Shown piece by piece: positions 24,901 to 54,382 of a stretch of 64,000 nt of DNA; position 1 is the stretch's first letter; each line of letters begins with the position of its first letter. A program made the position numbers and the translations under genes. The stretch lies in NCBI GenBank assembly GCA_000091205.1, contig AP006493.2, one strand, 5' to 3'. The notes under the pieces are model-generated. The model was not told the origin of the DNA and did no database searches. It saw only the letters and a list, made by a program, of their open reading frames with translations. Origin of the DNA: Cyanidioschyzon merolae (Eukaryota).

Positions 24901-27900
24901 TGGACGCTGCAGAGGCGTCCGCTTGGTTGGTGCTCGGCACCATAGAGGTGTACGGAGTGCGACTTTGCGACAGCCGCTGGCCTAACCTGCTGGGCTTCCT
25001 CGAATGGAGGCGAAAACTCCTGAGACAGCTCGATTCCGCTGGGAACACACGGCCTCGTGCGGAAGCTAGGAAGGGAGAGGTTTCCGCGCTCCAGTCGCAG
25101 GCTACGACTAGGCCAGGAACGGCATTGTCGTCAACCTGTCCGCGGTTAGCAGATAAGGATGAAATTGGAAAGGCCTTACACGCTCAGGATAGACTGGCTC
25201 CAGCATTGTCCGTGTCCGGTACTGCTGTATCATCGGGAATACCGGTCGGAAATGCATTGCCAGCAGCAGACGACGGAATAGCCACCACCGTGGAGCAGCG
25301 TTCTGAACGCTCACGAATGGAAATCAACGCTTCTAGCGCAGAGGTGGCATCCTCTTCCGCCGCAGTATCTTCGGGAACGCCTCTACTGCCAGCACAGCAC
25401 ATCGCTTTGTGTGAACGCGATAAGCTTCGCTCAACGGAAGCTGCACATTCGGCAGCAGTCCAAGATATCGCTTCCGCGGATAACATCGAGGACACTGCCG
25501 CTGGACGAATTGTCTGGCGAGCATGCTGGATGCTTGCCGCTATCTTGGCGATCACGGGGGATAATGCGACGACCGGGCTCCAACTAGTCGATGGTTCACT
25601 GCAACATCGCCTGAAGAGCTTTCCTGGTGCTAGCGATGCAGCAGAGGACGCCAACTCGCCACAAATGAAGCATCCAAGCGGCTACCTTGATCGCCACTGG
25701 TTCGGAACGTGGCGTGCGTTATGGAAACTTCTCAGCACTAGGAAGTATTGTTGGCAAAAGCGTCTGATGTTTGCGCAGTCGCTTCAGGAGACTGGCGATG
25801 AACACGCTGCGCTCGAGCAACTCTTGCATGCGGAGACGCATCAAGCCAGACGCTTTCTACGTCTAGATGATACGGAGAACACGCTTCTCCTACAGCAACA
25901 AGCCCGGAAATGCTTCGGCTGCTGGTCAGCGGATCAGGATCAAGTACCAGCAGCTTGGACGAGGGACTTGGTATGCTGGACGGTTGACAGTCTCGACACG
26001 TGCAGCGATCAACACCAGGGACGAGAGGCACTCCTCTGGGCTATCCAGGGACTAGAATGGCTCTACGAAGCGTGCGCTTCATGGACTACCACCACCACCA
26101 CCACCACTGCCACCACCGCAGCACATTCGACAACTCGTTCGGATCAAGGGCATCCTTTATCGATAGATGCGGCCAGCGTCTGCTCTTCACAGGAGACGCT
26201 TGTCTTATCGATAGACTTGGCCCGTGTGTACGCAGAGACTGCGGCAGCTTGGCTGAGCGCCTTTGACACCGAGGGTGCTGGTTCTGCGTCCGCGCCAAAT
26301 GAAGAAGATGAATCATCGCAACGGGATCGACCAACGTTTACAGAACGGAACCTCTGGACAGGTTTCCTCGTGGCGGCGAAACGACTCGGAGACGCCTGGT
26401 GCTCGTCGAGCCGGTGCTGGCAACAGCGTCCAAGTCGGCATGCGAACGAAGGTTCCTCGTCGGAACTCGATTTCTCCGCAGTTTTCTCGTGGTTATTTGA
26501 ACCATTTATTACGGAAGCAGCACCGAATGTGCTTACGAGATTCTTGCAAGTCTGGCTCACGGATGTCGACAAGTTGATCGGCGTCGATGCAACGCATCCT
26601 TCTGCGTTCGACTACTTGGACACTTGGCTTAGGGCCTGCTCTCATCACTGTGCACTGCACTCCTCTGAGCAGACGGAGTGTCGAGCGCGGATGCAAGCGG
26701 CCCCGAGTGCTTTACACGGGCGCTGTGCCCTGCCCTGGCGACGGCTGCCTCCTGAACGGCTACGCCTCATCTTGCGAGCGAGCCTCCTATGTGTCTCTGA
26801 CCAGAATCACTGGTGGTCGTTGTTGCGCCTCATCAACAACGTCGTTACGTCCGCTTCTCACATGGACGAAGCGCTGCGCACTGCCGAGCATTTCGCTGCC
26901 TTACTCAGCGATGAAGAGGCTGTTGTAGAATCGTCGACGCGAGCTATGGATTCCTGGTCGACTTTGGAAGTTTTCTGGATAGTATCAAACACCGTAGCAC
27001 CGCACATGATGGACTCGATGTCATTGTTCGAAACTGCAACTGGACCTGGAGCAACATTCGAGGCACTTGCGGCTGGACGGCAGCGCGAATGTTCACAACG
27101 CCGAGAGACACACCACGATATAGCGCTCTCTGTATGGATCAGGTGTTTTCAACAGCAATGGGTACCTGATCATTGGTCAGACTGTACTGCCTGGTTGCGA
27201 GCGTACTTTTTTCTGGTACTTGCTGCGAGTTGTCTCTGGTTTACGGTTGGTAATGGGAATGATCTTTCTGGTTCGGCTGACGCTACGACGACCTGCATTG
27301 CTGCTGCTGCTGCTGCTGCTGCTACTTCTAGTACTTGCAGTCGTGACACCACTACTGCTCGTATGCGTACTTCTACTGTTGTTGATGATGGTGATGATGA
27401 TGCGACTACCGTATCTCCTGCCTCTACGTTTACTGCTACCGATCCAGCAACGGCTAGAATGAGGCCCTGCGAGGCCGGTGTTGCCTCAGCTTGCAGCCCC
27501 GATAGCCTTGTGGAAGCCAGCAACTCGGGCAATGAGCCGGGCTGGAACGTTGCTGCCACGCGAACGCTCATCGAGTCGGTAGAGTTAGCGCTCTGGGACT
27601 GGTACGGTGCTGGTTTGTGTTTCGGATACCTGGAACAGCCTCCAGCTGCCTTAACAGACCTCGTGGAGGTGCTCATACCCTCGCGAGATGTCGTATCCGC
27701 GGCGTTCCAGCTCGTCGCCGTTCGCCAGACTCTAGCAGCGTTATCCACAGTGGACAATGGAGCATCTGCGCTATGCGACGCCTGCTGCGACCCTGCTGGC
27801 CAAACACAACGAAAAACGTCCACGTACTGGAACCGGTGGCAACGGCAGCAGCGGGTACAACAGGCTGTGCTCTGGATAAGCGCTGTACGGGAACGTGAGT

Positions 27901-30839
27901 TGTGCACGGACCTGGGACTAGCCACGCTTTTACCGACACTAGTCACTGCATTGAAGCACGATGATCGCTATTCAGCGGGTCTTTTGTTGCAATCGCTGCT
28001 CACATTGGGGAGCGAGCTAGCGCACTGGCAACAGATATCGCTTTCCCTGCGTTTGACTTGGGCCTGGCAACTTTTGCGCCTCCTCCTGGTGGAGCCAGAA
28101 CTCCGGCACTGGGCCCAAGACGCTTTGGTGATTGTTCTGGAACGATTGCTGTGCGACTTGATGGATGCTCCAGACCCTGGGGCCTGGGCAGCAACAGGGC
28201 AGCAGTCACCAGCATGCGCTGGTGTATGCGACGCTTCCGAGGCATCGATGTTGCTGGTGCTTTTGCGAAAGTACGTGGCGCTCTATCGACCCCGAGCGCT
28301 CTGCAAAGCGCTACCTACACTCGCAGACTGGGTCACGCTCCTTGCTGCACACTTGCATATCACAGCGGAACTGGTTGGACTCGAACGCTTCCTGATGCAG
28401 GCGACATTCCCGGGGTCCACGACCGCGGTCACTGAACGCAGCTGTGGGCGCGAGGCAGGCGCAACACCATCCAACAACCAGGAGCAAGTCTCTTGGCCGC
28501 TTTCTTGGTTACTGGCATCGCCGGTGTGTGTGGACTGTTTCCACGAGGCGCAAGGTGCGGGCCTGACGCTCCAGGCGGCCGGAGTGCATGGCGCTAGGAG
28601 CAGTGCATCGTTGCAGACTGCACAGCTTAGCGGAAGCACTTGCCTGGGCGGTGCTTCGTCGGCAGCAGCAGTCGCTGGAACGTTCGTCAAGCGCCAACCT
28701 CTATCGACTCTGGCGACTTGCGTACGCTTTGATGACGATCGTATTCAGGCGACATGGACGAGCCCGAAACGACTGCACTGTTTGGGTGTGCGCTTGCGTC
28801 ACACTCGTCGAAGCTTGGCCACGATACTCGGGTTTCGTGTATTGGTGCGCTCTCTAGGTACCGCGCTGGATGCTGCCGAAGTTCCTGGAGCAAGTGCAAC
28901 GCGTGCTCCAGCGAACTGGCGATGCCTCTGTGAACTAGTCTACCGCCAGGATGGGGCGCTGCTTGGTGTGCTCTGCTTTCTGGATGAATGGCCGGAACCG
29001 CTGTTGGGTGCTGATAACGCCCTCGCAACTGGACTTGCACTCGGCTTGACGCGTCAGACTGGCCGTTGTTGTGTACCCGAAACGCAAATTTGTCCGCGAT
29101 GTGCTCGCCTGGTGAGTGAACGGGGCGGCGTCTGTCCAGCTTGTCGAGAGAACGTCTATCAGTGTCGAGCGTGTCGCTTCATTGATTACGGGCGACTTGA
29201 TGCCTTGCTGTGTCGTGAATGTGGCAACTCGCGTCTCATGCGTTGTGATATTCAAGTCGAGACGAGCGACGTTGATCAGGAAGGGACGTTGTTGGAAGCG
29301 CTCATGCATTGGCGCTTCCGGCACACAACCGGTACAAGCAGCAGCAGCATCAGCAACACCGGAAGCGGAGGCGGAACGGAAACTGCACCAGGGGGAAATG
29401 CTAGCGCACCGGCAGTCAGCGCGGAAACGCATGAACCGAAAGCTGCTGCTGCTGCTGCTGCTGCTGCATGGATCGGTGCTCGAGAACGTCGAACAGCGCT
29501 CGTCGCGTGGTGCCTACACGCCCCCACTGAGGCGCTTTTACCGGTTGCGTGTGCGCGATGTGCGCAACGGCGGCTTCCTCGCCTTTGGACGATGTTCGCT
29601 GAAGCAGTTGGGCGTGCTGAATCCGCATCGACTGACCAGTGGAGCCAAGTGTTCGAGCCTCTGCACCGTGCCTTGTTGGTGCTGTTCAGTAGTGGCGGTT
29701 TCATCGATGGCGAGAGAGCAACGCAACAGCTGCCAGTGACGCTGGGCTCATTGCCGCAGCCGGCTCGCGACGCTTGGTTGCGCATCTTGGAGGAGGCACT
29801 CGTCGCTTCCGAATCTGGACCTCGAAATGAGCATGGTGAGGATGCTCGTTCGCGCTGCGAGTTCCAATGTGATCTCGGACAAGCGTATCTGCACCTCCTG
29901 ACGCAGTCGTTTGCATGCTCGGGAGCGTTTGGTGCAGATCGCTTGCTGCAGGGCGCAGAAGCGACCAGCGCTACGACGATGCTGGGCGGCATGCAGCAGC
30001 GTATTGTTATTCCTGCTACGCTGTTCAACAGCACCGCCGACTATCTAGCCGCAGTATATAGCCAAAGGTGGTGTGTACGTCTTTTCCAAAGGCGCTGGTG
30101 TCGGGGCCAAAGTCCGTGGCGGAGGCCCTGTCCCGAGCAATCCTGCAGCGAGGCGTGTATCTGGCGTGCACTTTTTCATCCGTATGCCCCAGGAGTACGC
30201 ACTTGGGCGCTTCGCGTCCTCGCACAGCGACCAGGGTACTGGCGTTGGCTCTTTCACCATAGAATCCTGCTGTTTGGTTGTTGGCAAGCGCTCCGACACG
30301 GTTGTGTTGACATGCTCGACGCGTACTGGGCGCTATGGAGTTGGCTATGGCACCACGAGCGAGCCTGGGTGGACTTTTGGGACTCCACTGGCGGCCTGGA
30401 GTTGCTCTGTACCGTGATTGCTTTCGCAGCTGGCGGTGTACCCTCTGGTGCAGACTCGAAAACGGCCATAGCTTGTGGATGTAGGCGAAACGCTTGGGTT
30501 CCGTCGCTCGCGGAAGCAGTCATTCATGCATGCTTGGAGCGCATCCAGGAGGCTGTGGTGCTGCGAGGGCGTTTACAGTGGACACGAGCTGCACTGGACT
30601 GTTTGCTCTGTGCGTTTGAAGCGCTCTATGTAGTTGCCGACACGAGGATGTCGCTAGCGGCGCAGTTAGCGCTGCTGATACAACGCCAAGCGGAACGGGA
30701 GCCGCTCCTGGCCCATTGGCAAGCTCGGTGGATGACGCAGCGTCTAGAGCGGTTGACAATGTCAGCTGGGACGGTTTCGTGTTTGCATACCGGAGCGACA
30801 GTGCTCGAAAGGAACGAGGGAAATGCTTACGATCGTTGA
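18951..30839 (+). CDS. UBR4: UBR4/BIG (p600/Calossin)-type N-recognin E3 ubiquitin ligase, single 11.9-kb ORF
   Basis: Canonical UBR box at ~19932-20090 (CTFLLTGRSFRDQHWYRCSTCAFREDEGVCTSCALICHAGHEVSYVRFSGFFCDCG). C-terminal cysteine-rich module at ~29091-29250 (CPRCARLVSERGGVCPACRENVYQCRACRFIDYGRLDALLCRECGNSRLMRCD) typical of the UBR4 E3 domain. Protein length is 3,962 aa. An alternative start is Met at 19095. Confidence 0.9.
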   Translation: MSARTNARFSSMLNGSAGISYSGRRNLRSNVPLDAGLLLLLLVHKVPNMDQVAACFRAAYADAVGSTPLLASAEERAVFVKNSLEFALKVEAQSRDVTAAGAEQQRTEIDRARQRLWFFCVGAAELLKEPGAQFPSPSLVTAAQQALRQRQQHWCNRLAAASRLSADTTLSTADEVDSLIALVRIGLTVLGLFVCLSILGEREHWRGPFLCELWQQGRAVYEALERQKASSAALRTTASFLQSYWLDALCTATWWIADLSNHAAATAWTLDTSPSSLLQIRDSASAQCSVWNPLHCSFTQPCATIRDQHWNCRGCSALQASSWTPHQCTFLLTGRSFRDQHWYRCSTCAFREDEGVCTSCALICHAGHEVSYVRFSGFFCDCGANAAATTPRTKCLLCTLVRSEETSSTTSSSEALHTSTETPRGAERRPAKAPELRDEHLLWMRPPSVSPLVELDSTKACFYHVFMEIAQLHGSSDRCPVRDASGSGETAPAGVLLAKAITEHLQSTFEWLRDSVLFRFLQSPTPGEIPLETNAQSQSVVQMPGTEQAPRKAFLPALHRAAAAGDESPRTATCNARDVREIQQDTCQVRGAGTYIQRATWKPEAVQVLTRVRHVDTNQGQSTLGMGVFWQLLPCGKQEARNPRELHWHHEPVLAFVDGLFLVTLAASEHHVAFLSDEADIRRSSASVPVHPSSEPLERAPLAGCACTGTVRSTRPTALDARRWIRRPLGFCAGELGFAPSCPRRGSLQRLLALNRETSTLRLYCVGSTVADVDGSLHAQSCASESPSRPVAAAAHPVVEPDKVRSVTLPTSGQSFTASWGTTDAAAAGDGTTVVHSAEALVGASGSRPAPAGPSANTATLVNAVGVSADAVVSDQLAEYPSNTRSRMQAPARRSTIRAHRAQRVLQRWREYHQVHAKRCLRLLLRPVPGPGAASAEGGTAYGAAEVATVPKTTPATLSLEQPERSSTGTMTFAAPAEASQFGARRATSTDTTSSQHPGRLYLLLERQCLETGEPIQEASWLDAYAIDWLLCLGRSRSSLEVLSIEYACWCWFCRWIREAHGEAAASAADTTSRPAGPDGTETCLTVSEAPSGTVSNDEEPFLWLSFADMDEALAARQPCTLRPAPCTEAAAENARLLLEQTTGSESQILRWLPDAAPEHDPWHMRERKRFRLMFSNARDGVAEGFVASSATTARDIWHSEVTEATLAGPVTAWTYGRVFFDASDRNRSPPGRLLLFLVLSNQHLVVYEYVAEARAASSVDIETSGLRQVASLELPLFDTTPCMHTLANAPEEKPSSPSATSTSTPARVLGLFYEAAQQELMLYWSNGHWSRWKLTWCREPGLDAAPEPDIGSRSIRNGHRSLSSERLLPFMPQLELTSVNSGCLFEGKAIVAEREALEDVQRVPVRCPHGCCCTSSSCSLMLLRSARTLYLLWWQREKRCWMATRQGAPYSSVSDVRVRQAGANSGAETAAQNTSMATQADSREQLAILCSLDAGTQDALLPERARRMDRPIPERCRQQRLIQATGWAQLEATACESASAFLIDVIMLLEDGTVLGTQTRLSCDVQISWNALEGSERPDRQPVSAVDSWKQQKHPEGVRYSCSGDVRLSQPHERDLSTAAARFAHLYWNHSTAEAVWLPASPEDGVAAADDEDEATPPDVASLPETPVEDHRGVRGNPVLQVRYPWIHCATSVAYQMTCSRSVSPWLGRPQGNSVPSALLLADQRNSNGGLVGFFELLDRVPSGMLAWTGDMWQLGLRSMTETQSWLEQWPSDSMELLSAPIRAFTYRSSAEQRPFRREDDAPGTRLTVLAYRVHSTSSSGAAREKRTAGLLQMPQRCEDTPLPLAADALLGQEQGQHHQLVFHVSNVGDNDASWALLGIRMAWLQPNRSGVQGVATPTQLEPQLVELLVQGDHEPATVPERGTSAPWTSRLSLELLPDPWVNPVPPEQGTWRWMEYCWDDPVVLRRNPCNRQVVLTIRAPAMDAAEASAWLVLGTIEVYGVRLCDSRWPNLLGFLEWRRKLLRQLDSAGNTRPRAEARKGEVSALQSQATTRPGTALSSTCPRLADKDEIGKALHAQDRLAPALSVSGTAVSSGIPVGNALPAADDGIATTVEQRSERSRMEINASSAEVASSSAAVSSGTPLLPAQHIALCERDKLRSTEAAHSAAVQDIASADNIEDTAAGRIVWRACWMLAAILAITGDNATTGLQLVDGSLQHRLKSFPGASDAAEDANSPQMKHPSGYLDRHWFGTWRALWKLLSTRKYCWQKRLMFAQSLQETGDEHAALEQLLHAETHQARRFLRLDDTENTLLLQQQARKCFGCWSADQDQVPAAWTRDLVCWTVDSLDTCSDQHQGREALLWAIQGLEWLYEACASWTTTTTTTTATTAAHSTTRSDQGHPLSIDAASVCSSQETLVLSIDLARVYAETAAAWLSAFDTEGAGSASAPNEEDESSQRDRPTFTERNLWTGFLVAAKRLGDAWCSSSRCWQQRPSRHANEGSSSELDFSAVFSWLFEPFITEAAPNVLTRFLQVWLTDVDKLIGVDATHPSAFDYLDTWLRACSHHCALHSSEQTECRARMQAAPSALHGRCALPWRRLPPERLRLILRASLLCVSDQNHWWSLLRLINNVVTSASHMDEALRTAEHFAALLSDEEAVVESSTRAMDSWSTLEVFWIVSNTVAPHMMDSMSLFETATGPGATFEALAAGRQRECSQRRETHHDIALSVWIRCFQQQWVPDHWSDCTAWLRAYFFLVLAASCLWFTVGNGNDLSGSADATTTCIAAAAAAAATSSTCSRDTTTARMRTSTVVDDGDDDATTVSPASTFTATDPATARMRPCEAGVASACSPDSLVEASNSGNEPGWNVAATRTLIESVELALWDWYGAGLCFGYLEQPPAALTDLVEVLIPSRDVVSAAFQLVAVRQTLAALSTVDNGASALCDACCDPAGQTQRKTSTYWNRWQRQQRVQQAVLWISAVRERELCTDLGLATLLPTLVTALKHDDRYSAGLLLQSLLTLGSELAHWQQISLSLRLTWAWQLLRLLLVEPELRHWAQDALVIVLERLLCDLMDAPDPGAWAATGQQSPACAGVCDASEASMLLVLLRKYVALYRPRALCKALPTLADWVTLLAAHLHITAELVGLERFLMQATFPGSTTAVTERSCGREAGATPSNNQEQVSWPLSWLLASPVCVDCFHEAQGAGLTLQAAGVHGARSSASLQTAQLSGSTCLGGASSAAAVAGTFVKRQPLSTLATCVRFDDDRIQATWTSPKRLHCLGVRLRHTRRSLATILGFRVLVRSLGTALDAAEVPGASATRAPANWRCLCELVYRQDGALLGVLCFLDEWPEPLLGADNALATGLALGLTRQTGRCCVPETQICPRCARLVSERGGVCPACRENVYQCRACRFIDYGRLDALLCRECGNSRLMRCDIQVETSDVDQEGTLLEALMHWRFRHTTGTSSSSISNTGSGGGTETAPGGNASAPAVSAETHEPKAAAAAAAAAWIGARERRTALVAWCLHAPTEALLPVACARCAQRRLPRLWTMFAEAVGRAESASTDQWSQVFEPLHRALLVLFSSGGFIDGERATQQLPVTLGSLPQPARDAWLRILEEALVASESGPRNEHGEDARSRCEFQCDLGQAYLHLLTQSFACSGAFGADRLLQGAEATSATTMLGGMQQRIVIPATLFNSTADYLAAVYSQRWCVRLFQRRWCRGQSPWRRPCPEQSCSEACIWRALFHPYAPGVRTWALRVLAQRPGYWRWLFHHRILLFGCWQALRHGCVDMLDAYWALWSWLWHHERAWVDFWDSTGGLELLCTVIAFAAGGVPSGADSKTAIACGCRRNAWVPSLAEAVIHACLERIQEAVVLRGRLQWTRAALDCLLCAFEALYVVADTRMSLAAQLALLIQRQAEREPLLAHWQARWMTQRLERLTMSAGTVSCLHTGATVLERNEGNAYDR

Positions 30840-37112: not shown

Positions 37113-38387
37113 GGCATTCGAACGTGTCCAGTACGCACAGAGTCCAATTCGAGCTCAACACGATAACTACGAAAGCAACAAAGATAGAACGCTCAATGAA
37201 AGGAGGAAAACTGTTATTCAAGTTGTGAGTGTTTCCGGTGTGTAGCTTGTCTCCTAGGTTTGTTAGGGAGTCGTTGAGCGTCGCTGGTTGACGCACTGTT
37301 GTTTTCCAGTGAAGCTGGCCGGTCGCTGGTCGAGGCGCGATCTCGAAATTGGCGCGAGCGGCGCTCGCTTTCTCTGTCTAGCGCCCGACGCAAACCAGAA
37401 GTTTTCATGGAATCTGTTGAGACAGGCGCGAAAACGCTGAGGCGCTGATATGTTATCCTTGGCTTGGAGGTACCCGAAAAGAGATTGTTGCTTGGGTAGT
37501 TCAAGAGAAACAGCGTCAAATAGCGGATGTGGGCGGGGATAGTGAAATGGTTGTATAGGGAACTGTTCCCGGTGCCTACTGGAGCGGTGGACTCCCGAAG
37601 AGCGTCTATTTACGGGAAGTATCATTCGGCGGTGCCGAGGACTAGTTCGGATACCTAGCTGCAAGCTATATGAGCGAAGAGTGTATAGTAAAGGGAAATC
37701 CTTTTGATACAAAAGTTGGACTGCGTGCTTTTGTCTCTTGAGGTCTCGAAAGCGGTGGCGTTTCTGTGTGGCCTATCGATACGTGTTATCTGATGGTGCC
37801 GGGCGTGCGTGACCTATGCTTTTCTGATTGACAGAGCGGTTACGAAGACCGAGAGTCCACCCGTCCTTCCCTCGGAGATAATGGTGATTTCGTACATTCC
37901 ATGGTACGCTGCACGGAGACAGAACGTCTTTGCCTGACGCTTACGCGCGGGTCCAGTGCATGTGCGTCCGCAAATGCCAGGCATCGATAGCGCCCCTACT
38001 GAGGCGAACTTGCGCGGGCGCAGATATCCAATATGCAGCGACTAATGGTTGTCGCTGCCCGCGTTACACACTCTGTGGGATGATATACATAGATTTATGG
38101 GAGTTCAAGCGGATTCGCAGCTCTCTGCCCAAAAAGAAGCGTTCGAGGTTCATGTATGTGCGAATTTTTCGGTATGACGCGACATGTCGTAACACGGCTA
38201 AATGAGCAGCCCCGAACAAGCCCGCTGATTCGATCAAGCGACCGCGTCCTTAGAGGACGTCGGGGGCGGCACCGCGGTACCCGTCCGCAATGCCACGCTC
38301 CACAGATTCTAGGCTAGTATCCGCCTATCGCTGGTCGCTTTATCGTGACACGAACGCATAGGCGAGACAGCTGCGGGGGGCTCTCGT

Positions 38388-39420: not shown

Positions 39421-40719
39421 CTACACCAACGACGATTCTTGTGCGCGCTCCTCCAGGAAAGTTTTGCACAGTTCGTAAGTGACAAAGGTCAGAACAGTTG
39501 CCGGCAAGGTGCGGAAAAGCGTTGCCCCGATACCCCGATAAAACGCGCTGATACCCTCTTCCTTAAGCATGTAGCGCACAAGCCGTAGCATTCGCACAGG
39601 CTCGGTACCGATACCTTTCGCGGTTCGATTAAGGAACGGTTCTGGTGGTGGTATACCGCTCTCTACTGACAATATGGATATCATTTGCAAGCGGCTTCGA
39701 ATGACCTCATGGGGATACGCTACAGCGCTGGCGACAATTTTGCTGACCGACGAGGCGACCATGATTCGCCATACTGGTGGGCGCGCCTCCGTTAGCGCAG
39801 ATGTGCTGGCCCCAGGTTCTTTGGAGCGCGGTCGGCTTACAACCCAGCTGCGCTTGAGTGCTTCGTATAGCGGGAACTGGACAGCGACATGAATCAGACC
39901 TAGGAGACTCGGGGTCAGGCCGCGATAGAGCGCGGCGAGGCCCTCCTCGCGAGCAATTCGGCGCAGGCATTCAAGCGGGTTCCGATATCGGGGAACTGAT
40001 CCCGGTAGGACAACCTCAGCTTGCATGCGCGTTTTCACAACCCAAAGCGGTGAGCAAAGCAGAGCCGTCGCAGCACCAGCGCCCATACTAGCCATCATCG
40101 AGGCCAGCATGTCCTTTGACAGACCTCTGCTGGGAAACAGGTTCGCCCCGAGTCGAGACCGTTTTGGCGGATTCTTCGACCACTGCTCCAGAAGCGTTCC
40201 CCGAAGTTGCTCGTACAGCGAGAAGTAAATCGCCCAGTTCGGCATGAACGCCATAAGCGATGCAGTTAAGCCGCGGTAGAAACCACCGATACCCTCCGTA
40301 CGAAACGTGGCACGAAAAACATCCCGAAAATGACGGAGCTCCAGACCGCTACCCGTACGCAGCGCGTGTGCGGTGTTCCCAAAACTTCCCACTTGCATGC
40401 GCGTACGTACCACGTCCAACGGACTGAGCACCAACGTGTTCACCATTCCAGAGACTGCTCCAGCAGTGAATGAGTACGAAAATTGCCGAGCATGTTTCGC
40501 CACTGAGTTGAATCGTTTGAAAAACAGTGTCTTTTTTGGATTCTTTTCCACACCCAGAGCGCCGTACTCTTCCTCGCCTCTCGAGTGCATGCCCGGTGGT
40601 GCGCTCCTGGAGCAGCCGCAGTCGCGCGGCAGTAGCCCGCTGTCTAAGCTTGTGGACAGAGGCACTGACGACAAGGACTGCAGCTTATTGGTCCGCGCAG
40701 TTCCAGAACGCGCGGCCAA
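39421..40719 (-). CDS. Mitochondrial carrier family (SLC25) protein, NAD+/folate/pyrimidine-nucleotide carrier subgroup
   Basis: Three MCF repeats with signature motifs 'PLDVVRTRMQ', 'PLWVVKTRMQ' and 'PHEVIRSRLQ'. There is an N-terminal extension of ~90 aa, and the start codon is uncertain. Confidence 0.85.
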   Translation of the reverse strand: MAARSGTARTNKLQSLSSVPLSTSLDSGLLPRDCGCSRSAPPGMHSRGEEEYGALGVEKNPKKTLFFKRFNSVAKHARQFSYSFTAGAVSGMVNTLVLSPLDVVRTRMQVGSFGNTAHALRTGSGLELRHFRDVFRATFRTEGIGGFYRGLTASLMAFMPNWAIYFSLYEQLRGTLLEQWSKNPPKRSRLGANLFPSRGLSKDMLASMMASMGAGAATALLCSPLWVVKTRMQAEVVLPGSVPRYRNPLECLRRIAREEGLAALYRGLTPSLLGLIHVAVQFPLYEALKRSWVVSRPRSKEPGASTSALTEARPPVWRIMVASSVSKIVASAVAYPHEVIRSRLQMISILSVESGIPPPEPFLNRTAKGIGTEPVRMLRLVRYMLKEEGISAFYRGIGATLFRTLPATVLTFVTYELCKTFLEERAQESSLV

Positions 40720-40989
40720 ACGCCGTTCTAAACTCGAACGACGCCGACCGTGTACCGTAGTGGCGACGACAGCGCCCTAGACAAGAAGTCTCCGATTGAC
40801 GTGCAGACGCCCCCTCGCCTTTTGGACCGGCCAACTACTACTGCTTCAAACTTTTTCTCATATAGTTCGACTTTGAGAGGTTGTCCAACAAAGTTCTGTC
40901 TTGTCCATGCTGGAGGTCTCGTCTCCAGCACCGCACATCTCCTGACATTGATTTTTTTCATTGACAAAACGTTTACTTAGCCTATCGTT

Positions 40990-41340
40990 CTCCGATTGTG
41001 CGCTAGTTCTTTTCTTACTTTTTTGTTTTTTTCAGTGCGAGGTGAGATATCCATCAACCCCCTACCTCCAAGTTACGCTACCCAGAATTTTCCTCGGATA
41101 TTCTGGTCGTTTCATACGTCCTATCGTGTGTGCCTAGTACCTGCAGTTCCGTATCCGCCTCTGGGCCTGAACCGCTGGAGCAGATAATTCATAGAGACAG
41201 AACGGCGTTGCCGTACCACAGAGGGCGTCAGCTCGAGGCGTGGTTCACCCGGCGTAGAATCGGGTCTCATTGTCTGTCTGTGCTCGGACAGTCTGCGGAT
41301 GCAGGCTTGTCTTCGCTGCACGACACGCTGGAGAAACTTG
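40990..41340 (+). repeat. Dispersed ~330-bp repeat family, copy 2 (begins 'cttttcttacttttttgtttttttcag|tgcgaggtgag')
   Basis: Aligns with the reverse complement of 2165-2510 and of 55805-56060. It has a polypyrimidine tract plus AG at the 5' end. It lies ~300 bp from the 3' end of the degenerate LINE. Confidence 0.55.
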
Positions 41341-41649
41341 GCTGTTAGGATATATCCTGGGAGCCGCCTCTCTCCTTCGTGATCATGCATGGAGTGCGTT
41401 GTTGTCGGTTGGCAATGCGGGTTTCTGCTTGACACCCACCACAGTGGGTAGACGCAGAAAGCGCACTGAGCCCGTGTGCGCATCCGATTCGCTGGACCCT
41501 TCTTTCTAGAAGGTAGCATGTGAGTTTGTTCGCCACTAATGAGCGCTGAGGCTCCGTTAGCGGGCCATCAGTTGCCAGTGCTACACTCAAAGTGTGTGTC
41601 CGGCCTTTGGCTATCAAGGTGATGCCCAGCTGCTGCTGTCCTCCAAGGA

Positions 41650-44600
41650 GCTCGCTGCGCTCGTGTTTCCAGCGCGGGCACTGTAAGCCTAACTATGTCA
41701 GCGTCTCGGGGTTCTCGTTTCCACAGCAGGGACAGTGTGACTCCCAGTGCGATTCCAGTGTTCCTATGCGGCTTAGAGCCGGTGCTGGTAGCCAGAAGCC
41801 ACCAACGCGCATTTTGGCCAGCCACTGGGTACCTCGAGCAAGTCCCGGGAACTCCAGCGTCTCCCACCAGTGCTTGCATGTGTATGCTAGGTTGTAGTTC
41901 CGGTATAGAGTCAAGCCGGCGTTACTCGCGCGACTGGTACCGTGTCTACGTTCCCATATTGGTGTTTGGACCTTTCGCTTCAGGTGACGGGAGAATTCTA
42001 TATTTCTGGGGAACGATTGGGTAGCGTGTTTTCGCCTGAGAGGCGCTTCACCGAAATCTGCGTCGATTTCATCCAAGTGTTCTTGCGGTGGGTTGGGGTC
42101 TTCATGAAACTCCGACTGAACCAGGTGCGCATAGTGGGCCCTTTGGCCCGTATACATGCCCGGCAGCCTGCTGCTATCGCTTATATCGAGAGTATTTGGA
42201 GTTCAAGTCCGAGTGTCAGCGGGTTGGTCGCTCTGCTCTGCACTGAGCATCCAACAACAACAACGAGTCGCATTGCCCTGTTGGCGGCTGTCTGCAGACG
42301 TGAGGCATTTGGGTGCTTCATGCCGCACCATTCAGCACCCCAGGTCGCAGGCTGGATGATACACATCCTTAGTGCGCTGGTACGGATTGCTATGCAGATA
42401 GAGGGGTCGGATAAGAATGGGCCTGCGATCGCTATACGTCTATGCATCTTGGCGATCATCTCGTCGATGTGTGCCTTTTCGTCGAGCGTCGGCGTGAGAC
42501 AGACCCCCGGGTAGCGATCTTTTTCCACGATTGGAATTTCCTGATTCTGCAACCGCCACGAGCGATTGCGAATGCTCTGCGAGTCTCCATGGATGACCAT
42601 GACGCCGCACTTCGATGCTCCTATGCTCATCTCTCAGCGATCGGTCCAGGCGCTGACTTGTTCCATGCTACCCGCAAGCGTTTCCGGGGCGGGTGCCAAC
42701 AGCACGACATCGTCCGCAACTAGACGGCCTGCGAGGCGGTTTCTATGTGAGGGCTCCTCACCGGACATCTCCACAGTCTATCCACGGCGCCTCAGCCGCG
42801 AATTGTCTGCAGTTGTTCAGCAGATCGTTGATGAAGATGTTGAAAAGGAGCGGGGATGCGGGGTCGCCCTGTCGCAGTCCACGGTGGATTCTTATGGAAG
42901 GGGTTCTTGAGCAGTCGCCCAGTCGGATGCGCATCCATGAGTCTGCATAGAGCGCACGGAAGAACGCTAAGCACTTTCCGGAGACTCCGGCTCGTTCCAT
43001 CTTCAGAAATGGAGCCTCGTGCGGGACCGTGTCCAAGGCCTTTTGAAAGTCGGTGAAGCATACGTAAGCTGGTTGTTGGCCGCTAATCGAGCAACGTTGC
43101 ACCACTTCAGTTAGGGTCAGGGTATGGCTCATGCACTCCTCGTGGCTCCGGAATCCAGCCTGTTCTGGGGCGAAGAACTTGCGTTCCTGGAGGCCTCTCT
43201 GGATCCGGTTCGTGGGAATGGCGCAAAGTAGCTTCATGATTGACGGGATGAGGCGCATAGTCCGGTAGATGTTCATGTCTGTGTGGGAGTCCTTTTTGAG
43301 GATCGGTACGACCTCGGCAGTCCTCCGTACATCTGGGATGCACGCTTCTTCAAACATGCGTTGAATGAGCTCCAGAAGGCGTTTGCATAAGATTGTGTCA
43401 GGTTCATCTGGTATCGATAGTGTCCCTGTTGTCCCGTCTTTTGGGGTCGCCAGTTTCATCCACTCCGCCGCGATGCCGCCGATGCCAGGTGTTTTGCGGT
43501 TGCTTGAGCATAGCAGGGTCCGAACAGATTCAGGCCAGAAGATTGGGTCGTTCCATTCCGGTACCGGTTCGAGGCGCCGTAGTTCTGCAGCATATTGGTG
43601 CCGATAGATTCGGTTTTGGCAGTGCCCAGTTGCGTCTTCATGCAGCTCTGGCCCGTGGTCCGTCCAGGCCTCATTCACTGAGGCACTCTCCGTCCTCAGC
43701 GCTTCCTCATAAACGATTGGTGTGAGCCCCAAGCACTTTTTCGGTGGGTCGAGTCTCGATCGAATGTAGCCTGGGGTTTCATCTTCGCTGGTGCTCTCTA
43801 GCATAGATTTCGCCAGGGCGGCGATTTTGCGGCTTCGATCCTCTCGTTTGTCTTCTCTGGAAAGTTTCTTCTTTTTTTTGATAGCTTCTTCATGTTGCGC
43901 CTGTAGCGCCAGTAGCGCTGCCTTCGCTTCCTTGTCTCCGGCGTTGGTGCGTATGGCGGTGCGGTTGACGTTCTTATTGAGTCGATGGCATTCATCAATC
44001 CGAGTTTTGGTACGTCGTTTCAGGTACTGAGGTTTGCAACTGTTGTGTTCTGGTGCAAGCAGTCCCAGTTCTCTGGCAGTCTTCTTATTCCCATCTACAA
44101 ACTCGCGTGCCAATTGGTCTAAAGATTTGCATGCACGGCTTTTCGGATCTTCAGCGCTGTGAGTAGGTGCCTGGGTTTGGCGACGGCTTTCTTGAGTTCC
44201 AGCTGGGGCACTCTTTCAGGGGATCACTCATGATGGGCTCGTTTGGGGGGGGGTCTTCTTTCTCTTCTTCTGTTTTTTCTTGTCGGTCTTCCTCGTCTTC
44301 TTCGGGCTCTTTCCTGAGCTAAATTCTCTGGTTATTTTGCATCTAGGTGGATCATGAGGTTTCTGTGCCTCCTTCTCCGTATCCCGTTGGGTCTCTTTCG
44401 CTATTGCAGAGTCCTCTATTCGTGTCTCTTCTTCGTTAATGTACTGATAATTCGTTATCTCGTAGTTCAATACCGAGGCTATCCCGCAAATATTCCATGA
44501 TGCGAAACCTATCGAGTCGTAGCGCATAAGTGAATAGGAATAGCGCTGCGGTACTCCAGAGGTACGTCGTCGATTTAGACGCACGCTCCATGGGGTGTGT

Positions 44601-44750
44601 GAGCGTACATGCCACAATTGCCTCCTGCATTCCACTCGTTCACTGAGTGTCTGCCGCAGCACAAGCGTAGAATCAGAAGTACAATAGTCAAGGTCGATTC
44701 GAATGCGACCTTTATCTTGCCGGACGCGTGAAGCTCCCCTCAATTACTGG
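41650..44750 (-). mobile_element. Degenerate, frameshifted non-LTR (LINE) retrotransposon: APE-like N-terminal remnant, RT, C-terminal zinc-knuckle
   Basis: RT motifs 'FTDFQKALDTV' and 'GLRQGDPASPLLFNIFINDL' in ORF 42758..44113(-). The RT continues in a different frame (42181..42630: 'VMVIHGDSQSIRNRSWRLQNQEIPIVEKDRYPGV'). A third frame carries 'HWESHCPCCGNENPETLT' (41693..42157). The APE-type start motif 'IGFASWNICGI' sits at ~44560 (ORF 44228..44743). Multiple frameshifts indicate a dead copy. Confidence 0.75.
42758..44113 (-). pseudogene. Reverse-transcriptase ORF fragment of the degenerate LINE
   Basis: 451-aa ORF with RT palm motifs. It is truncated relative to a full ORF2, and the downstream RT/Zn-finger segments lie in other frames. 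Confidence 0.7.
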
Positions 44751-45433
44751 GAACAGTCTACGAATTACCCTTTCAGCGGCTTCGTATCCGCTCCCCAAAC
44801 ACATCGGCGGGCAAGTCGCTTGTTCCAGCTTCTACCGCGAACATACCGCCAGCTGTCTTCCGAAGTATCCGCCGAGATTGTTTCCAGAGTTGAGGTAGGT
44901 ACCCAAGGTAGGAGGTAAAACTGAGCCCGATCTCGAGGATGGGTACAGGATTTGCGCCCGAACTTGCAGCGTCGATTCTAGAGCAGCGGATAACTACTCA
45001 GAATTCCCTTCAACATTCTCTGCTGCTGCTGCCTTCTACCCTCCGTTCGTTGCGGTCAAGGTCCCTGGCGTGGGCTTCCTTCCCAGTCGCCCAAACACCT
45101 CGGTTTAACCCACTTTCAGAGCTCCTCCGGTAAAACTAGACCTCTTAGGCGGACGTAATGTGTGGGGCTTTAAGATAGTTGTTCTTTGATAAATAGTTTG
45201 TGACTGGTTTGTTTTGTTGTTTTCCTATTCCGCCCGGTGCATTCGATGCAGGCTTTGGCGCGGCCGCACACCCGTTCGACTGCAAAACGGATTCATTCTT
45301 AAGGTCTATCTACTTTTGGAAATAGTTTGGAACGGTGCCGCAAGGCCCCAGTGGTGTCGTGCCAGCGTTGAACAGGTACCTGCCCACAGTCGAGAACTCC
45401 GAGCACCAGCATATACGCTCGAGTTTGACGCAA

Positions 45434-47906: not shown

Positions 47907-50900
47907 GTCACGAAAGCCATCCCATGGCAGCTTTTGCTGCGGCTGATCGCTTTTCCTCTCTCTTAGCTCCGGGCTGGAATACGCCGGTCTCTACTTTCTT
48001 TCCAGCACTGTTGTAGGCTGTCGAGGGATGCTAATCGCGGCGTTGGGGTCGCAGTTTCACAGGTTCCGGCAGTTGCCTGCGTATTCGATGTACAGGCGGA
48101 GGTTGCGATTGACGGATCGCTTGCCGTTTTCTTCGTTTCCTAGAATTCAGTACTGGTGCGCGCCTCGTAGCGGTTAACCTGGTTGTGTTCAGATATTCCC
48201 GTATGTGTTCACGAGCTCGCATTCCCTGGGAGCCGACCTGCAGCATGCGAGCGCTTGCTGCATCCCTCCGTAGCTGTCGTTGACGGGTACAGAAGGCTCT
48301 ACGCGATGCCTTGCTCCGTTTTCGCGCCCAGTGCTGTGCCCCGTGATCATGCACTTGCTCTTCTGGACGACTTCTTGTGCGAGTGCGCTGCCCGCTGCAC
48401 TCGCAAGCGCACGCTATTCCATTCGGTACCTCAACAACCGATTCCTTGTGCGCTCTTGCTTTCCTGCGTTCCCTTCCCACAAACTGTGCAGATGAGCGTG
48501 ACGGGCCATCAGGTCCGATTGTGCCACATGCTTGTGATAATGCCGCCAAGGCTACTGGGACTCTCTCCTGTCTCACTCGTTTGCGCGTCGGACGAGTGCC
48601 TCACTCGCTCACCGTCCGCTTAGGCGAACATATGAGGTACTCGAGTCCAAGCTACGACTTTGAGCGGGAATCGGCGTGTTCGAGACTCGCGGCTCCAGTG
48701 CGTCGTCGGTGACCACAGGCAAGTCGGGCATCCCTTCGGATCTCGCAATCATCGTGAAGGTTCAGGGACCCGGTCTCTTTGGGTCCAAGTTGAGGCCGAT
48801 CGCATTGGGGAGCAAGTTCGCGCCGCCGCGCATCCCAGTTGTTCGTTGTTCATCCACACATTTCCCCCTCTAACCAGGGTGCATCTGCACCCTGACGATT
48901 CTTCAGTCGTATAGAGCGTTCGCGCTTGACGGCGATGGACACACTCGCGCTATCGGAAGCGAACGACGACTCTACTTCTCCTGTTGGAAGCGCGAAGCTC
49001 CGGTTCCTCCGGTCTCCCTTCGCCTCCGCGCCCTCCTGCGCGCTCCGTCGCTTCTCGCTCGTCAAGCGGTTCATGAGTTTCTTCGAATCTTCGGGTGCGG
49101 GCGCATAGTTCGCTGTCTGGGCTTGCACCTAGCGATCAGCCTCTCTTCCTCTTCCTCGACACACTTGTTCTCCATCGGACGCATCTGCGTAACCCTCGCG
49201 CGGCGTCACGATCCACGACAAAGCGAAAAAGTGTGCTTGCTGGCAGTGCCACGAGCCACGGAGACGTGCGTTCGTAAAAGCCGCGTACTCCTCCCCTGAC
49301 GGAGGCTCTGGACCGGCACGCTGGGTGCAGACGCGCCATCGCATTCGTGGGTGCGTTAGTCGCATGCGACAGGTCCATCTTCGAGACAACGTCCTCGTCG
49401 CGAAGGGCCAGATGACGGACATTCATCATGGTCTCCCAATCCTTCGAGCCGACTGGCTGCAATGAAGCGTCGGTCATGAAGAGCTCCTTCATACCGCCCA
49501 TGCCGGTCGCCGAGTCGTCGCACTTTCGCCTCCACCCCATAGAATCTTTCACGTGCCGGTGGAGGTGTATGCTCACCCTTCTCAGCGTCACTGTGCGTAT
49601 CATTCCCCGTACCCATTCGTATTATCTGGGGCGCTTTGAGTCACCAAGCGAGAGAGGCCCTCGACGCTCCCAATGCTGTCCAGCTTGGGAGCCGACGTCC
49701 GTGCGTCGCCGATGAAGGCTAGTTGCGGGTCAAGTCTGCCTGGTGCGCACTCGGGGACAACTAGGACGAAAAGCTTATCGGTGTCAGCTGCGCTTCTACA
49801 AAGTGCTGGACGTTTCCAAAGACCTCGGCACACTCGAAGCACGCGGACTTGAGTTTGAGGCAAGCGTGTCGCCGGAGCTTGCTGCAAAGAACCACCAGGT
49901 ACATGTCGCGTGCCACGTGTTCCGGTGGGAGCACGCACGTTCCAAGCTGGCACTGAACGACCGCCGTTTCCGGCAGTAACGATGAGCGCCGCTCCTCGTC
50001 CGTGAACACACCCAAGCGAAGCGTTCCGTTCAGGAAACCGCCCCGTCCGAGACTGGCGAGCTCGTCTGGAAGCGGTACGCATCTCTTTTCGTTACGCTCT
50101 TGGACGATTTTCGTCCAACTACACAGTCGTTTCTCTGAGACCTCTCGTGTGCGGCGGTTGTGTGCCTCCGTCGATAAGCATGCCGTATAACTAAAGTATT
50201 TATACCTTGTTTTTCTCTTCGTACTACTTCGGAATTCCACGAACCGCAATCGTCAGCGAGTTTCCCTATACAAACTCCAACAGGTCCATTGGTCTGAACG
50301 GCAGTTCCTCGAGCACTGGGCATCAGTTCGTGTCGAGAGCGAGCCGCGTTATCCCGAAGCGTGCATCGGCCTCTCTGAGGCTGCGTTTGACGGCCCCGCA
50401 ACCGTTCTCCATCGGTTTGAAACACAGAGCATAAGCTGGTGTGTGCGTGTGCAGGATGACCAATGCCCGCTCTTTGCTGTTTGCCGAATAGAAGGGAATT
50501 CGTGGAACGCGTTGCTGTCTATGATGAAACACGCAGTGGCTGGAGTGGAACTCCAGATTCGCGACGCAGCGTAGAAACGTCGATCCGTCGGCGCTCCTGC
50601 CGTGCCGCTAAGCGATGACGCACTTGCCACCGGAATCCATCGCTGCGATGACTGCAGTCCGCGTCCAGCACCCTTTCCCATGCGAACAGAAGAGACGCGA
50701 GCCTCTGGGAGCGGATCCCACGGGCGGGAATGTGGTTGTGGTGGTGGTGCTGCTGCTCCTGCTGCTGCTGCTGATTTCGGGTCCCTTCTCTTCGATGGCC
50801 ACGGAGCGGGCTGGAATTGTCTTTCGGGCGGGATCGATTGCTTAACGTGACGAGCTCATTGAGCTTTCGGCGGGAGCGTGTGGAGAAGTCACCAAGGGAT

Positions 50901-51299
50901 GGCGCCGCGCTCCTTTTCTCGTCGGGTCGGCAGCGCGAATCGTTGCGCCTACGAGTTGCGTCGCGACTGAAATGACGAAAACTCGAAGAATACGTGATTC
51001 GAGCGTGATAGACGTAAGGAAAGGAGGAGCGTGGCGGTCACTCACATGAACAGGACGGTGATATCGAATATTTTTTTGAAATCTTTTTTTAGGACGCCGC
51101 ATTTCGTCTTGATTCCAGAGCCGTAACGAGCTGCAGTTGTGAAGCATTGAACGAGCCATTGCGAAAAGACAACCTAGAGTCGGAGAACGGACCGTGAATC
51201 CGAAATTCCTTATTATTGGACTTTGAACGTCTAGGATGTGTATCTATAAATTTTCAGGAGGAAATTGAAAGATAGAAACATGTCGAACCGCTTAGTGCT
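47907..51299. repeat. Left arm of a 3,393-bp long inverted repeat (~98-99% identical to 58707-62099)
   Basis: The coordinate sum is constant (x + x' = 110006) for mirrored ORF pairs (48031..48576 vs 61430..61975; 50842..51159 vs 58847..59164) and for hand-checked end sequences (cgaaagccatcccatgg… vs …ccatgggatggctttc). Protein-level differences of 7 in 181 aa imply ~1.5% nucleotide divergence. Confidence 0.85.
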
Positions 51300-51945: not shown

Positions 51946-54382
51946 CTACGAGTCTTTCCTTGTCACTGGATTCATACCTGTTACGGAATTGCCGCCGCCG
52001 CTGCCCATTGGGCCGCCAGAGTTTTGCCCACCGAGGCCACCTCCAGTACCAGATCCGCTAGACATATCCGGTGCGTTCGGACGGGTCGGTGGTGCTTGCG
52101 TTTGCGGTGGTGGTGGTGGTGTAGGCTGCTTCGGTGGCGCCAATATGGGAGCCTGTGGTGCTGTAGGCCCATCCCCATTCATCATTTGTTGCCCATTTCT
52201 GGGGCCGTTGCCGCCACCGCTGCCTATTGATCCGCCAGAGTTTTGCCCACCGAGGCCACCTCCAGTACCGGATCCGCTAGACATATCCGGTGCGTTCGGA
52301 CGGGTCGGTGGTGCTTGCGTTTGCGGTGGTGGTGGTGGTGTAGGCTGCTTCGGTGGCGCCAATATGGGAGCCTGTGGTGCTGTAGGCCCATCCCCATTCA
52401 TCATTTGTTGCCCATTTCTGGGGCCGTTGCCGCCACCGCTGCCTATTTGTGCGCCAGAGTTTTGCCCACCGAGGCCACCTCCAGTACCAGATCCGCTAGA
52501 CCCGTCCAGCAGATTTGGCTGAGGCTGTGGTGTGTGCTGATGTGGTGGTGGTGTTGGCGGCTTCGGTTGCGTTGGTGTTGGAGCCTGTGGCGCTGTAGCC
52601 CCGTTCTCATTCATCATTTGTTGCCCATTTCTGGGGCCGTTGCCGCCACCGCTGCCTATTTGTGCGCCAGAGTTTTGCCCACCGAGGCCACCTCCAGTAC
52701 CAGATCCGCTAGACCCGTCCAGCAGATTTGGCTGAGGCTGTGGTGTGTGCTGATGTGGTGGTGGTGTTGGCGGCTTCGGTTGCGTTGGTGTTGGAGCCTG
52801 TGGCGCTGTAGCCCCGTTCTCATTCATCATTTGTTGCCCATTTCTGGGGCCGTTGCCGCCACCGCTGCCTATTTGTGCGCCAGAGTTTTGCCCACCGAGG
52901 CCACCTCCAGTACCAGATCCGCTAGACCCGTCCAGCAGATTTGGCTGAGGCTGTGGTGTGTGCTGATGTGGTGGTGGTGTTGGCGGCTTCGGTTGCGTTG
53001 GTGTTGGAGCCTGTGGCGCTGTAGCCCCGTTCTCATTCATCATTTGTTGCCCATTTCTGGGGCCGTTGCCGCCACCGCTGCCTATTTGTGCGCCAGAGTT
53101 TTGCCCACCGAGGCCACCTCCAGTACCAGATCCGCTAGACCCGTCCAGCAGATTCGGCTGAGGCTGTGGTGTGTGCCGATGTGGTGGTGGTGTCGGCGGC
53201 TCCGTAGTCGGTGTAGGCGGCTTAGTCATTGGCGTTGGCGGCTCCGTAGTCGGTGTTGGCGGCTTCGTAGTCGGCGTTGGCGGCTTCGTAGTCGGTGTCG
53301 GCGGCTTCGTAGTCGGCGTTGTCGTGCCTAGTCGTCGGTGTCGGCGGCTTAGTAGTCGGCGTAGGCGGCTTAGTAGTCGGTGTAGGCGGCTTAGTAGTCG
53401 GCGTAGGCGGCTTAGTAGTCGGCGTAGGCGGCTTAGTAGTCGGCGTAGGCGGCTTAGTAGTCGGTGTAGGCGGCTTCGTAGTCGGTGTAGGCGGCTTAGT
53501 AGTTGGCGTCGGCGGCTTCGTAGTCGGTGTAGGCGGCTTAGTCGTCGGTGTTGGCGGCTTAGTCGTTGGCGTCGGCGGCTTAGTCGTCGGCGTTAATGTT
53601 GGTGTCGGCGTTGGTATTATTGTAATCGGTGGCATTGGTGTCGGTATCTGCGTAGTAGTCGGCGTTGGAGGTATCGTTGGCTTGACTATTATGATCGTTG
53701 GTGTTTGCGTTGGTGTTTGAATGGAAAATACCTCCTGATGACATACACGTTTCACTTCTTTGCAGATGATTGTACAAGCTGGCTGAGCGGGGCTCTTCGA
53801 CGCAACAGTTCCCTGAACTTTTCCCAGAGTAGTCTTCTGTGGTGTGCTAGGTATCCACCTATCCGAAACTGGAACCTTCCCTGATACGTCCTTCTGTGGT
53901 CCAAACACCAACGAGCACTTTTCCTCTGCTGTGAAGCTTTCAACGCACACTCGACAGATATTCTTCAGTGCATACATCTCGCACACTGTTTGGTTCTTAT
54001 AGATGCATTTCTGGTAACAGTCATTTGGAGCATGAACTGGCACGTTCCCTTTCCTCACATTTGTGTATCCTTCTGTCCTTGCATTCTTTGAAAGCCCATA
54101 CTTTTCCTTGGGCGAGGCGTTCTCGAAGTTCGAGCTCGCTGGACAAATCCAGACTTTCTTCTCACAGACTTTCACTACTGCCTCTTCAATGCAGACTTGC
54201 TCCAGACGGCAGTCTTCGATCGTGATCAAAGGCTGGCAGTAGTCCAGGTTGCGTTGGAGCGAGTTTCGTGCCGGCGAAACTTCGCTCCAAGTTTCTCGTT
54301 GGATACCATTGGTAAGCACAGCGCTGTTTAGGTACAAAAGAATGAGCAGCCAAAAGATCCCAACTGAAACAAAGCTTCTCAT
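51946..54382 (-). CDS. Large secreted mucin-like protein (family member B): signal peptide, Cys-pattern domain, (TTKPPTPT)n repeats, then Gly/Pro/Gln-rich 71-73-aa repeats; apparent +1 frameshift at ~53320-53335
   Basis: ORF 53222..54382 has a signal peptide (FVSVGIFWLLILLYLNSAVL), 'KVCEKKVWIC' and 'CYQKCIYKNQTVCEMYALKNICRVCVESFTAEEKC', then TTKPPTPT x ~10. ORF 51946..53229 starts in the same TTKPPTP reading ('MTKPPTPTTEPP…') and both frames stay open across the junction. A divergent repeat unit 'cacgacaacgcc' (12 nt versus the expected 11) produces the frame change. Confidence 0.55.
52000..53200. repeat. Tandem repeats inside mucin-like gene B: 213-bp unit x ~3.5 (52440-53190) and 219-bp unit x 2 (52000-52440), encoding 71/73-aa Gly/Pro/Gln-rich modules
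   Basis: Period measured directly: 'gcctatttgtgcgccagag' at 52441 and 52654 (213 bp); 'ttttgcccaccgaggccacc' at 52022 and 52241 (219 bp). The protein modules are '…NLLDGSSGSGTGGGLGGQNSGAQIGSGGGNGPRNGQQMMNENGATAPQAPTPTQPKPPTPPPHQHTPQPQP' (71 aa) and the 73-aa variant 'DMSSGSGTGGGLGGQNSGGSIGSGGGNGPRNGQQMMNGDGPTAPQAPILAPPKQPTPPPPPQTQAPPTRPNAP'. Confidence 0.8.
53230..53600. repeat. 24-nt tandem repeat array (ggcggcttagtagtcggcgtaggc)n encoding (TTKPPTPT)n on the minus strand
   Basis: More than 11 near-identical 24-nt units are visible in the sequence. They generate spurious G/V-rich ORFs on the plus strand (53171..53596, 53319..53720). Confidence 0.8.

Follow-up and report, generated by a model that had tools for sequence, protein, structure and literature searches.

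A dispersed repeat of Cyanidioschyzon merolae very probably represents the 3' end of a LINE and its 5'-truncated retrocopies

The stretch of Cyanidioschyzon merolae DNA analyzed here, called the window below, is 64 kb long and contains long, intron-less open reading frames for ribophorin I, PHD-finger, UBR-box and UBR4-like proteins, a mitochondrial carrier, GFAT and a reverse transcriptase. The carrier frame (39421-40590, minus strand) is 100% identical to a protein of C. merolae 10D. Several repeated sequences other than the family under study were also seen. Just upstream of the 3962-aa UBR-box frame (18951-30839), a 100-nt unit is duplicated in tandem and in perfect register at 98% identity (18682-18881). 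Two arms of 3393 nt (47907-51299 and 58707-62099), 99% identical, form an inverted repeat that encloses 7.4 kb with tandem-repeat frames (51989-53661 and 56641-57045; periods of 21, 213/219 and 81 nt) and one copy of the repeat described below, copy 3; the arm itself was considered as a high-copy element, which it is not in the fetched loci. The segment 31399-32552 matches a sequence of about 1.2-1.6 kb in at least 25 metagenome loci at 57-63% identity (query L087:141-1713), and may correspond to the interspersed element of 3.2 kb with a WSV486-like frame of which Nozaki et al. (2007; PMC1955436) described 253 copies.

The subject of this study is a family of which the initial annotation had reported three mutually alike copies. 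These are real, and their similarity is far beyond chance in BLASTN, repeat and profile searches. By BLASTN within the window, copies 2 and 3 are 75.8% identical over 293 nt (E=1e-51), copies 1 and 2 are 70.9% identical over 220 nt (E=1e-30), and copies 1 and 3 are 75.4% identical over 175 nt; the repeat search aligned the same pairs in blocks of 74-85% identity. A profile of the tail, as we call the repeat unit, gave five matches in the window with nhmmer, of which the three main copies scored between E=4e-63 and E=4e-167. The other matches, seen with both BLASTN and nhmmer, are a degenerate fourth copy, which is probably ancient, and a fragment of about 50 nt (Table 1). The boundaries first given for copies 1 and 2 (2165-2510 and 40990-41340) proved too narrow, and those of copy 3 (55805-56060) have been revised.

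Table 1. Copies of the repeat, the LINE and associated features in the window
Feature	Position	Strand	Evidence
Copy 1, solo tail of ~645 nt, divergent subfamily	1862-2509	+	nhmmer, profile positions 4-653, E=4e-167
Copy 2, 3'-terminal ~650 nt of the LINE, continuous with the LINE body	40950-41617	-	nhmmer, profile positions 4-652, E=4e-160
Copy 3, solo tail of ~288 nt, hot-spot class	55813-56100	+	nhmmer 55810-56102, profile positions 383-652, E=4e-63
Copy 4, degenerate, internally deleted	~37841-37949	-	BLAST; nhmmer ~37861-37935, E=3e-4 and 6e-3
Fragment of ~50 nt, extreme 3' end of the tail	1739-1789	-	nhmmer, profile positions 604-654, E=2.8e-4 (weak evidence)
LINE, degenerate non-LTR retrotransposon, ~4.3 kb	40952-45211	-	RVT_1; homology to metagenome contigs
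Internal A-rich stretch of the 3' UTR	41007-41035	-	Sequence; multi-copy alignments
True 3' terminus, ...AAACGTTTTGTCAATG(A)7, then target-derived TC	40952-40975	-	Homology to L003 and to solo copies stops here
Upstream TSD of copy 3, ATGGAAGCCAATTCC	55800-55814	+	13 of 15 bases match 56101-56115
Downstream TSD of copy 3, ATAGAAGCCGATTCC	56101-56115	+	Match to 55800-55814

Copy 3 starts with CCTCGAGCCGACGCC and corresponds by BLAST to positions 3863-4149 of the LINE reference. Copy 1 ends in an A-run (2500-2506), and its 5' limit (window 1860-1864) is common to at least 15 loci. Inspection of its flanks did not reveal a clear target-site duplication (TSD), and another repeat abuts it at position 2507. 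This second dispersed family of about 900 nt (2507-3400) was found at 10 or more loci at 66-72% identity; at other loci it reaches further on the 2507 side, whereas its window version breaks off precisely at the end of copy 1, a possible reason for the lack of a clear TSD in copy 1. Upstream of copy 1, a near-duplicate pair (acatgaaccagagatccccgattttt / acatgaactggggatctacgatttgt, at 1760-1830) overlaps the short tail fragment.

The reverse transcriptase frame (42758-44113, minus strand) matches Pfam RVT_1 and is 100% identical to a C. merolae protein that NCBI labels "retroelement, alive". Among solved structures it matches the reverse transcriptases of L1 ORF2p and R2, and its relatives are common in hot-spring metagenomes. 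One metagenome contig, L003, aligns with the window from 43821 down to 40952 at 90% identity, unbroken from the reverse transcriptase region through all of copy 2, and the alignment ends exactly at the outer boundary of the repeat. A second contig, L004, aligns from 45078 to 41231 at 85%, and homology to a third, L014, sets the 5' limit of the element at about 45211 and hence its length at about 4.3 kb. Because the L003 alignment runs without interruption from the reverse transcriptase region to 40952, copy 2, which had been described as lying next to a dead LINE, is the uninterrupted 3' end of that LINE, and its sense strand is opposite to the one first noted. The tail also lies directly 3' of LINE coding sequence at 14 unique loci among the matches listed, so that a 3' tail shared with the LINE family is found both in the window and elsewhere. 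On alignment, the three copies thus turned out to be fragments of a longer element, the LINE 3' end. Next to copies 1 and 3, a tblastn search of the window with LINE peptides detected no coding sequence of the LINE.

In intact relatives, the stop codon of ORF2 lies about 78 nt inside the 650-nt unit, so the unit starts about 25 codons before the end of ORF2 and continues through a 3' UTR of about 570 nt. The idea that the ~645-nt class of copies is exactly the 3' UTR was ruled out by the same position of the stop.

The window LINE itself is degenerate. Its coding sequence, with two frameshifts, is split into three pieces in two frames, and the pieces downstream of the reverse transcriptase end in a cysteine motif, HCPCCG..ETLT(Y)LLLQCP, of a kind typical for the C terminus of LINE ORF2. 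An in-frame stop lies within this motif, where other copies read tyrosine. The frameshifts and the stop are thus present despite the "alive" in the database name. The N-terminal ~400 residues are rich in lysine and glutamate and match no known domain. In the window frames and in related metagenome proteins, all of them from degenerate or fragmentary copies, Pfam recognized RVT_1 only, and neither an APE nor a REL endonuclease. As no endonuclease domain was detected, the autonomous source element is not fully characterized.

The recognition of the sense strand bears on the feature that had drawn attention to the family. The copies had been described as beginning with a T-rich run that ends in cag. 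To the initial annotation this looked like a branch point and a polypyrimidine tract with its AG acceptor, behind which comes a GT-like donor, and it was reminiscent of elements that lend RNA-processing signals to neighboring genes. The motif exists in copy 2 (ttcttttcttacttttttgtttttttcag, then tgcgaggtgagat), and a similar one exists in copy 3, but copy 1 and all three aligned members of its subfamily are without a long T-rich run; the short T7 noted in copy 1 is the complement of its terminal A-run. Nor do the copies begin with the run, since homology extends about 55-75 nt past it in copies 2 and 3. Read on the sense strand, the supposed polypyrimidine tract with its cag is CTGAAAAAAACAAAAAAGTAAGAAAAGAA, an internal A-rich stretch that stops about 75 nt short of the true 3' end (...TTTTGTCAATGAAAAAAA), and its length differs between copies in the alignment. 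It is followed by some 75 nt more and then by the true terminus, ...AAACGTTTTGTCAATGAAAAAAA. A splice signal that is conserved in all copies and lies on the sense strand was not found among them. Moreover, T-rich complements are expected by default from A-rich stretches near LINE 3' ends, and only about 0.5% of C. merolae genes have introns (PMC1955436), which also speaks against a splice signal. With the motif antisense, internal, variable in length and missing from a whole subfamily, we consider a splicing element extremely improbable; judging by the alignments, the polypyrimidine tract-AG-GTGAG arrangement results when the internal A-rich stretch and neighboring UTR are read on the opposite strand, and would have no role in splicing. 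A trypanosomatid origin of the DNA, with a trans-splicing acceptor element such as SIRE, was also considered on account of the long intron-less frames, "mucins", the LINE and the polypyrimidine-AG motif, and was dropped in view of the carrier frame, which is that of C. merolae 10D.

To describe the family beyond the window, JGI metagenome contigs were scanned by exact pattern with a conserved 21-mer of the tail, which returned at least 120 stretches. Some are 99% identical to the window, and others come from related strains or species. After removal of loci with identical flanks, about 91 distinct loci from hot-spring metagenomes remained among the matches listed in which the 3' end is intact and both flanks are present; as they come from a mixture of strains and species, this number (~90) does not stand for the copy number of strain 10D. 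Those among the ~91 loci that are not attached to a LINE are referred to as solo copies. Among the matches listed, the ~91 loci all end at profile position 635 or beyond, whereas their 5' starts are spread over positions 3-598. The terminus is ...GTCAATG(A)5-8 in all copies. Individual copies are flanked by direct repeats of 9-20 bp, for example TCAAACTGCATGAAGCGA, CCCACACACTCGA, ATCGGATGTCGTG and TACAGCATGCAGTG. End repeats with a score of at least 10 were present in 24 of 58 unique truncated copies (among the matches listed), compared with 0-1 of 58 in controls with either flank shifted by 120 nt; in the window, copy 3 has a 15-bp TSD with 13 matching positions. The A-run is directly followed by TC in 18 of 46 unique copies (again among the matches listed), and many TSDs begin with ATCG or ATCC, which together suggest a target or priming preference for ATC, or ATC(G/C), right after the terminal A-run. 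An ATC junction of this kind lies at 40950-40958 in the window.

These properties bear on two of the other explanations that had been offered. A MITE or another derivative of a DNA transposon could account for copies that are short, dispersed and intergenic. The termini, CCTCGAGCC... and ...GTCAATGAAAAAAA, are however not inverted repeats, and the TSDs vary between 9 and 20 bp and are not of fixed length. In addition, the copies have a common 3' end but differing 5' ends, and the sequence forms one continuous element with a reverse transcriptase gene. We therefore give practically no credence to a DNA transposon origin.

A family of small structured RNA genes would be consistent with blocks such as GAAACGACCAGAATATCCGAG and CCTCGAGCCGACGCCC, which are highly conserved across subfamilies, and with a hairpin (ACGGC-AAC-GCCGT) in which a G-C pair is changed to A-U in nine sequences. 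This covariation is, however, within reach of controls, and the consensus structure of 40 tails reached only -2.5 kcal/mol with 11 pairs in RNAalifold. Rfam gave nothing relevant, whether in a scan of the whole window at gathering thresholds or in relaxed scans of copies 2 and 3. As TSDs, truncations and contiguity with the LINE likewise argue against genes for a structured RNA, we regard such a family as highly improbable. An HDV-like ribozyme at the 5' end of the hot-spot class (see below) was examined by eye and rejected; there was no P1 partner in range, and a long-range helix that might have served is not conserved in the other UTR subtype.

Although the 5' ends are spread widely, they are not evenly distributed. 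Of 77 solo copies among the matches listed, 24 start within profile positions 358-397, most of them at CCTCGAGCCGACGCC; this is the ~290-nt class that includes copy 3, and the motif is the starting point of no fewer than 17 independent loci, which differ in their TSDs. In the divergent subfamily, about 13 copies among the matches listed start near profile positions 3-9 at GGAAAAAGAACAGAAAC, the start of the ~645-nt class that includes copy 1 of the window and is shared by at least 10 loci of the subfamily. A smaller cluster of starts lies at positions 3585-3590 of the LINE reference, and intermediate 5' ends with TSDs were found at positions 3503, 3676, 3738, 3883, 3922, 3974 and 4017.

The clusters raise the question whether the ~290-nt and ~645-nt classes are discrete, non-autonomous, SINE-like retroposons that consist of the tail only, have an RNA 5' end of their own, set by a transcription start or by processing within the LINE 3' region, and are mobilized in trans by the LINE. 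The tightness of the two clusters is what such elements would predict. In a neighbor-joining tree, most short copies also stand in a clade of their own, apart from most LINE-attached tails, and a copy that starts at the same motif occurs in a species that is about 73% identical at the protein level. The same short-copy clade nonetheless includes L005, which is a LINE-attached tail, and L071, which is a longer copy; the hot-spot starts occur in both UTR subtypes, and many of the intermediate 5' ends carry TSDs. Of the features that define a SINE, a 3' tail shared with a partner LINE was found, but ARAGORN and Rfam revealed no head derived from tRNA, 5S or 7SL RNA and no pol III boxes, and ARAGORN found no tRNA in the window. 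The initial idea of a non-autonomous retroposon thus holds insofar as the solo copies are retroposed, flanked by TSDs and terminated by an A-run, but not as far as a SINE head is concerned.

A further argument comes from derivatives of the LINE with internal deletions, in which a 5' part is joined straight to the 3' tail (L014:1794-2993, L049:1-769, L053:12720-14445 and L020:1-678). L014 and L049 have the 5' ~530-640 nt fused to the 3' ~563 nt. On the LINE reference, the 3' breakpoints are at 3587 for L014 and L049 and at 3857 for L053, with another at 3973, and each of these falls on a hot spot or on a position where 5' truncation was seen. Because the internal-deletion derivatives break at the same points, we read the 5'-end hot spots as probable sites of reverse transcriptase fall-off or template breakage, and consider discrete tail-only elements unlikely. 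If they did exist, then C. merolae, which has been described as almost transposon-free, would host an abundant and undescribed family of head-less, SINE-like elements that is older than the split of the Cyanidioschyzon lineages.

Together, our data speak strongly for the view that these repeats all represent the 3'-terminal segment of a C. merolae LINE, consisting of the end of ORF2 and the ~570-nt 3' UTR; in this view, which we hold to be very probable, copy 2 still forms the intact end of the degenerate LINE, whereas copies 1 and 3, like the two degenerate fragments, are solo retrocopies. A shared 3' end, variable 5' ends, TSDs of variable length, an A-run at the terminus and contiguity with a reverse transcriptase are the features by which LINE retrocopies produced through target-primed reverse transcription are recognized. 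The common 3' end, the differing 5' ends and the TSDs identify the copies as 5'-truncated. We infer from the established mechanism of LINEs, the hallmarks of which are seen in the copies analyzed here, that reverse transcription of the LINE RNA would start from its 3' end where the target is nicked, preferentially at A-rich or ATC sites, and that synthesis or the template would end early, leaving copies with a common 3' end, differing 5' ends and flanking TSDs. Some points do not fit as well. The 5' ends are not random, and their clustering fits discrete source RNAs as well as it fits truncation; copy 1 is without a clear TSD; and the short copies are mostly separate from the LINE-attached tails in the tree.

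A comparison with a related species, in which the carrier protein is about 73% identical and the gene order is the same, bears on the age of the insertions. Between the genes for GFAT and the mitochondrial carrier, the spacer measures 2.1 kb in L001 and L002, with no hit to the LINE or the tail, versus 4.8 kb in the window. This is supportive of a lineage-specific insertion of the LINE, although the relative is distant and its spacer is not an exact empty site. The related species has a degenerate tail copy in the spacer between Der1 and UBR4, where copy 4 of the window also lies, and in the same orientation; copy 4 may thus predate the split of the two lineages. The sequence that flanks the 3' end of the window LINE (40716-40951) is itself a dispersed repeat, with at least 25 loci at 73-87% identity, and in other loci it continues upstream (...GACTTTAACGCCGCT joined to ATCAATAT...). 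Apparently this repeat was there first, and the LINE landed in it at an ATC site. At other loci, too, the repeat is frequently found beside a tail copy or nested with one.

The copies resemble the 5'-truncated, "dead-on-arrival" copies of L1, CR1 and L2 in their shared 3' end, variable 5' ends, variable-length TSDs and short A-rich terminus, in that some are contiguous with a reverse transcriptase body, and in that tails far outnumber full elements. They differ from them in that the tail is a short (A)5-8 after a conserved GTCAATG and not a long poly(A), in the ATC target preference and the strong 5'-end hot spots, and in the lack of a recognizable endonuclease domain in the copies examined. 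In trypanosomes, RIME/ingi and NARTc/L1Tc are pairs in which the retroposon derives from a LINE by internal deletion, and the internal-deletion derivatives found here (L014 and L049) would be comparable. Some SINEs share the 3' tail of a LINE, a part that is needed for recognition in "stringent" LINE/SINE pairs. The short C. merolae copies likewise share a LINE 3' tail; unlike SINEs, they have no pol III-type head, and transcription of their own would be putative.

Nozaki et al. (2007) counted 26 class I elements in C. merolae, all closest to non-LTR retrotransposons, and put transposons at 0.7% of the genome, counting only elements related to reverse transcriptase (PMC1955436). The reverse transcriptase frame of the window, being 100% identical to an annotated protein, belongs to one of the annotated elements (PMC1955436). 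The tail-only copies of 290-650 nt have no reverse transcriptase, unlike the elements of that census, and we found no description of them as a family in the searchable literature. A study from 2024 reported few dispersed repeats in C. merolae with RepeatMasker, while the de novo finder RED flagged 28% (PMC11050394).

The finding is thus a new but unremarkable example of the well-known 5'-truncated LINE copies. From the alignments, the repeats would be LINE tails, the usual remains of a transposon rather than a signal for RNA processing. The idea of a splice signal is dropped, and the three copies should be annotated as LINE tails. As the census counted only elements that bear a reverse transcriptase, tail-only retrocopies were missed; in the window alone there are four solo fragments besides one LINE. 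How reverse transcription of this LINE terminates could be approached through the 5'-end hot spots, the ATC preference suggested by the junctions and the breakpoints shared with the internal-deletion derivatives.
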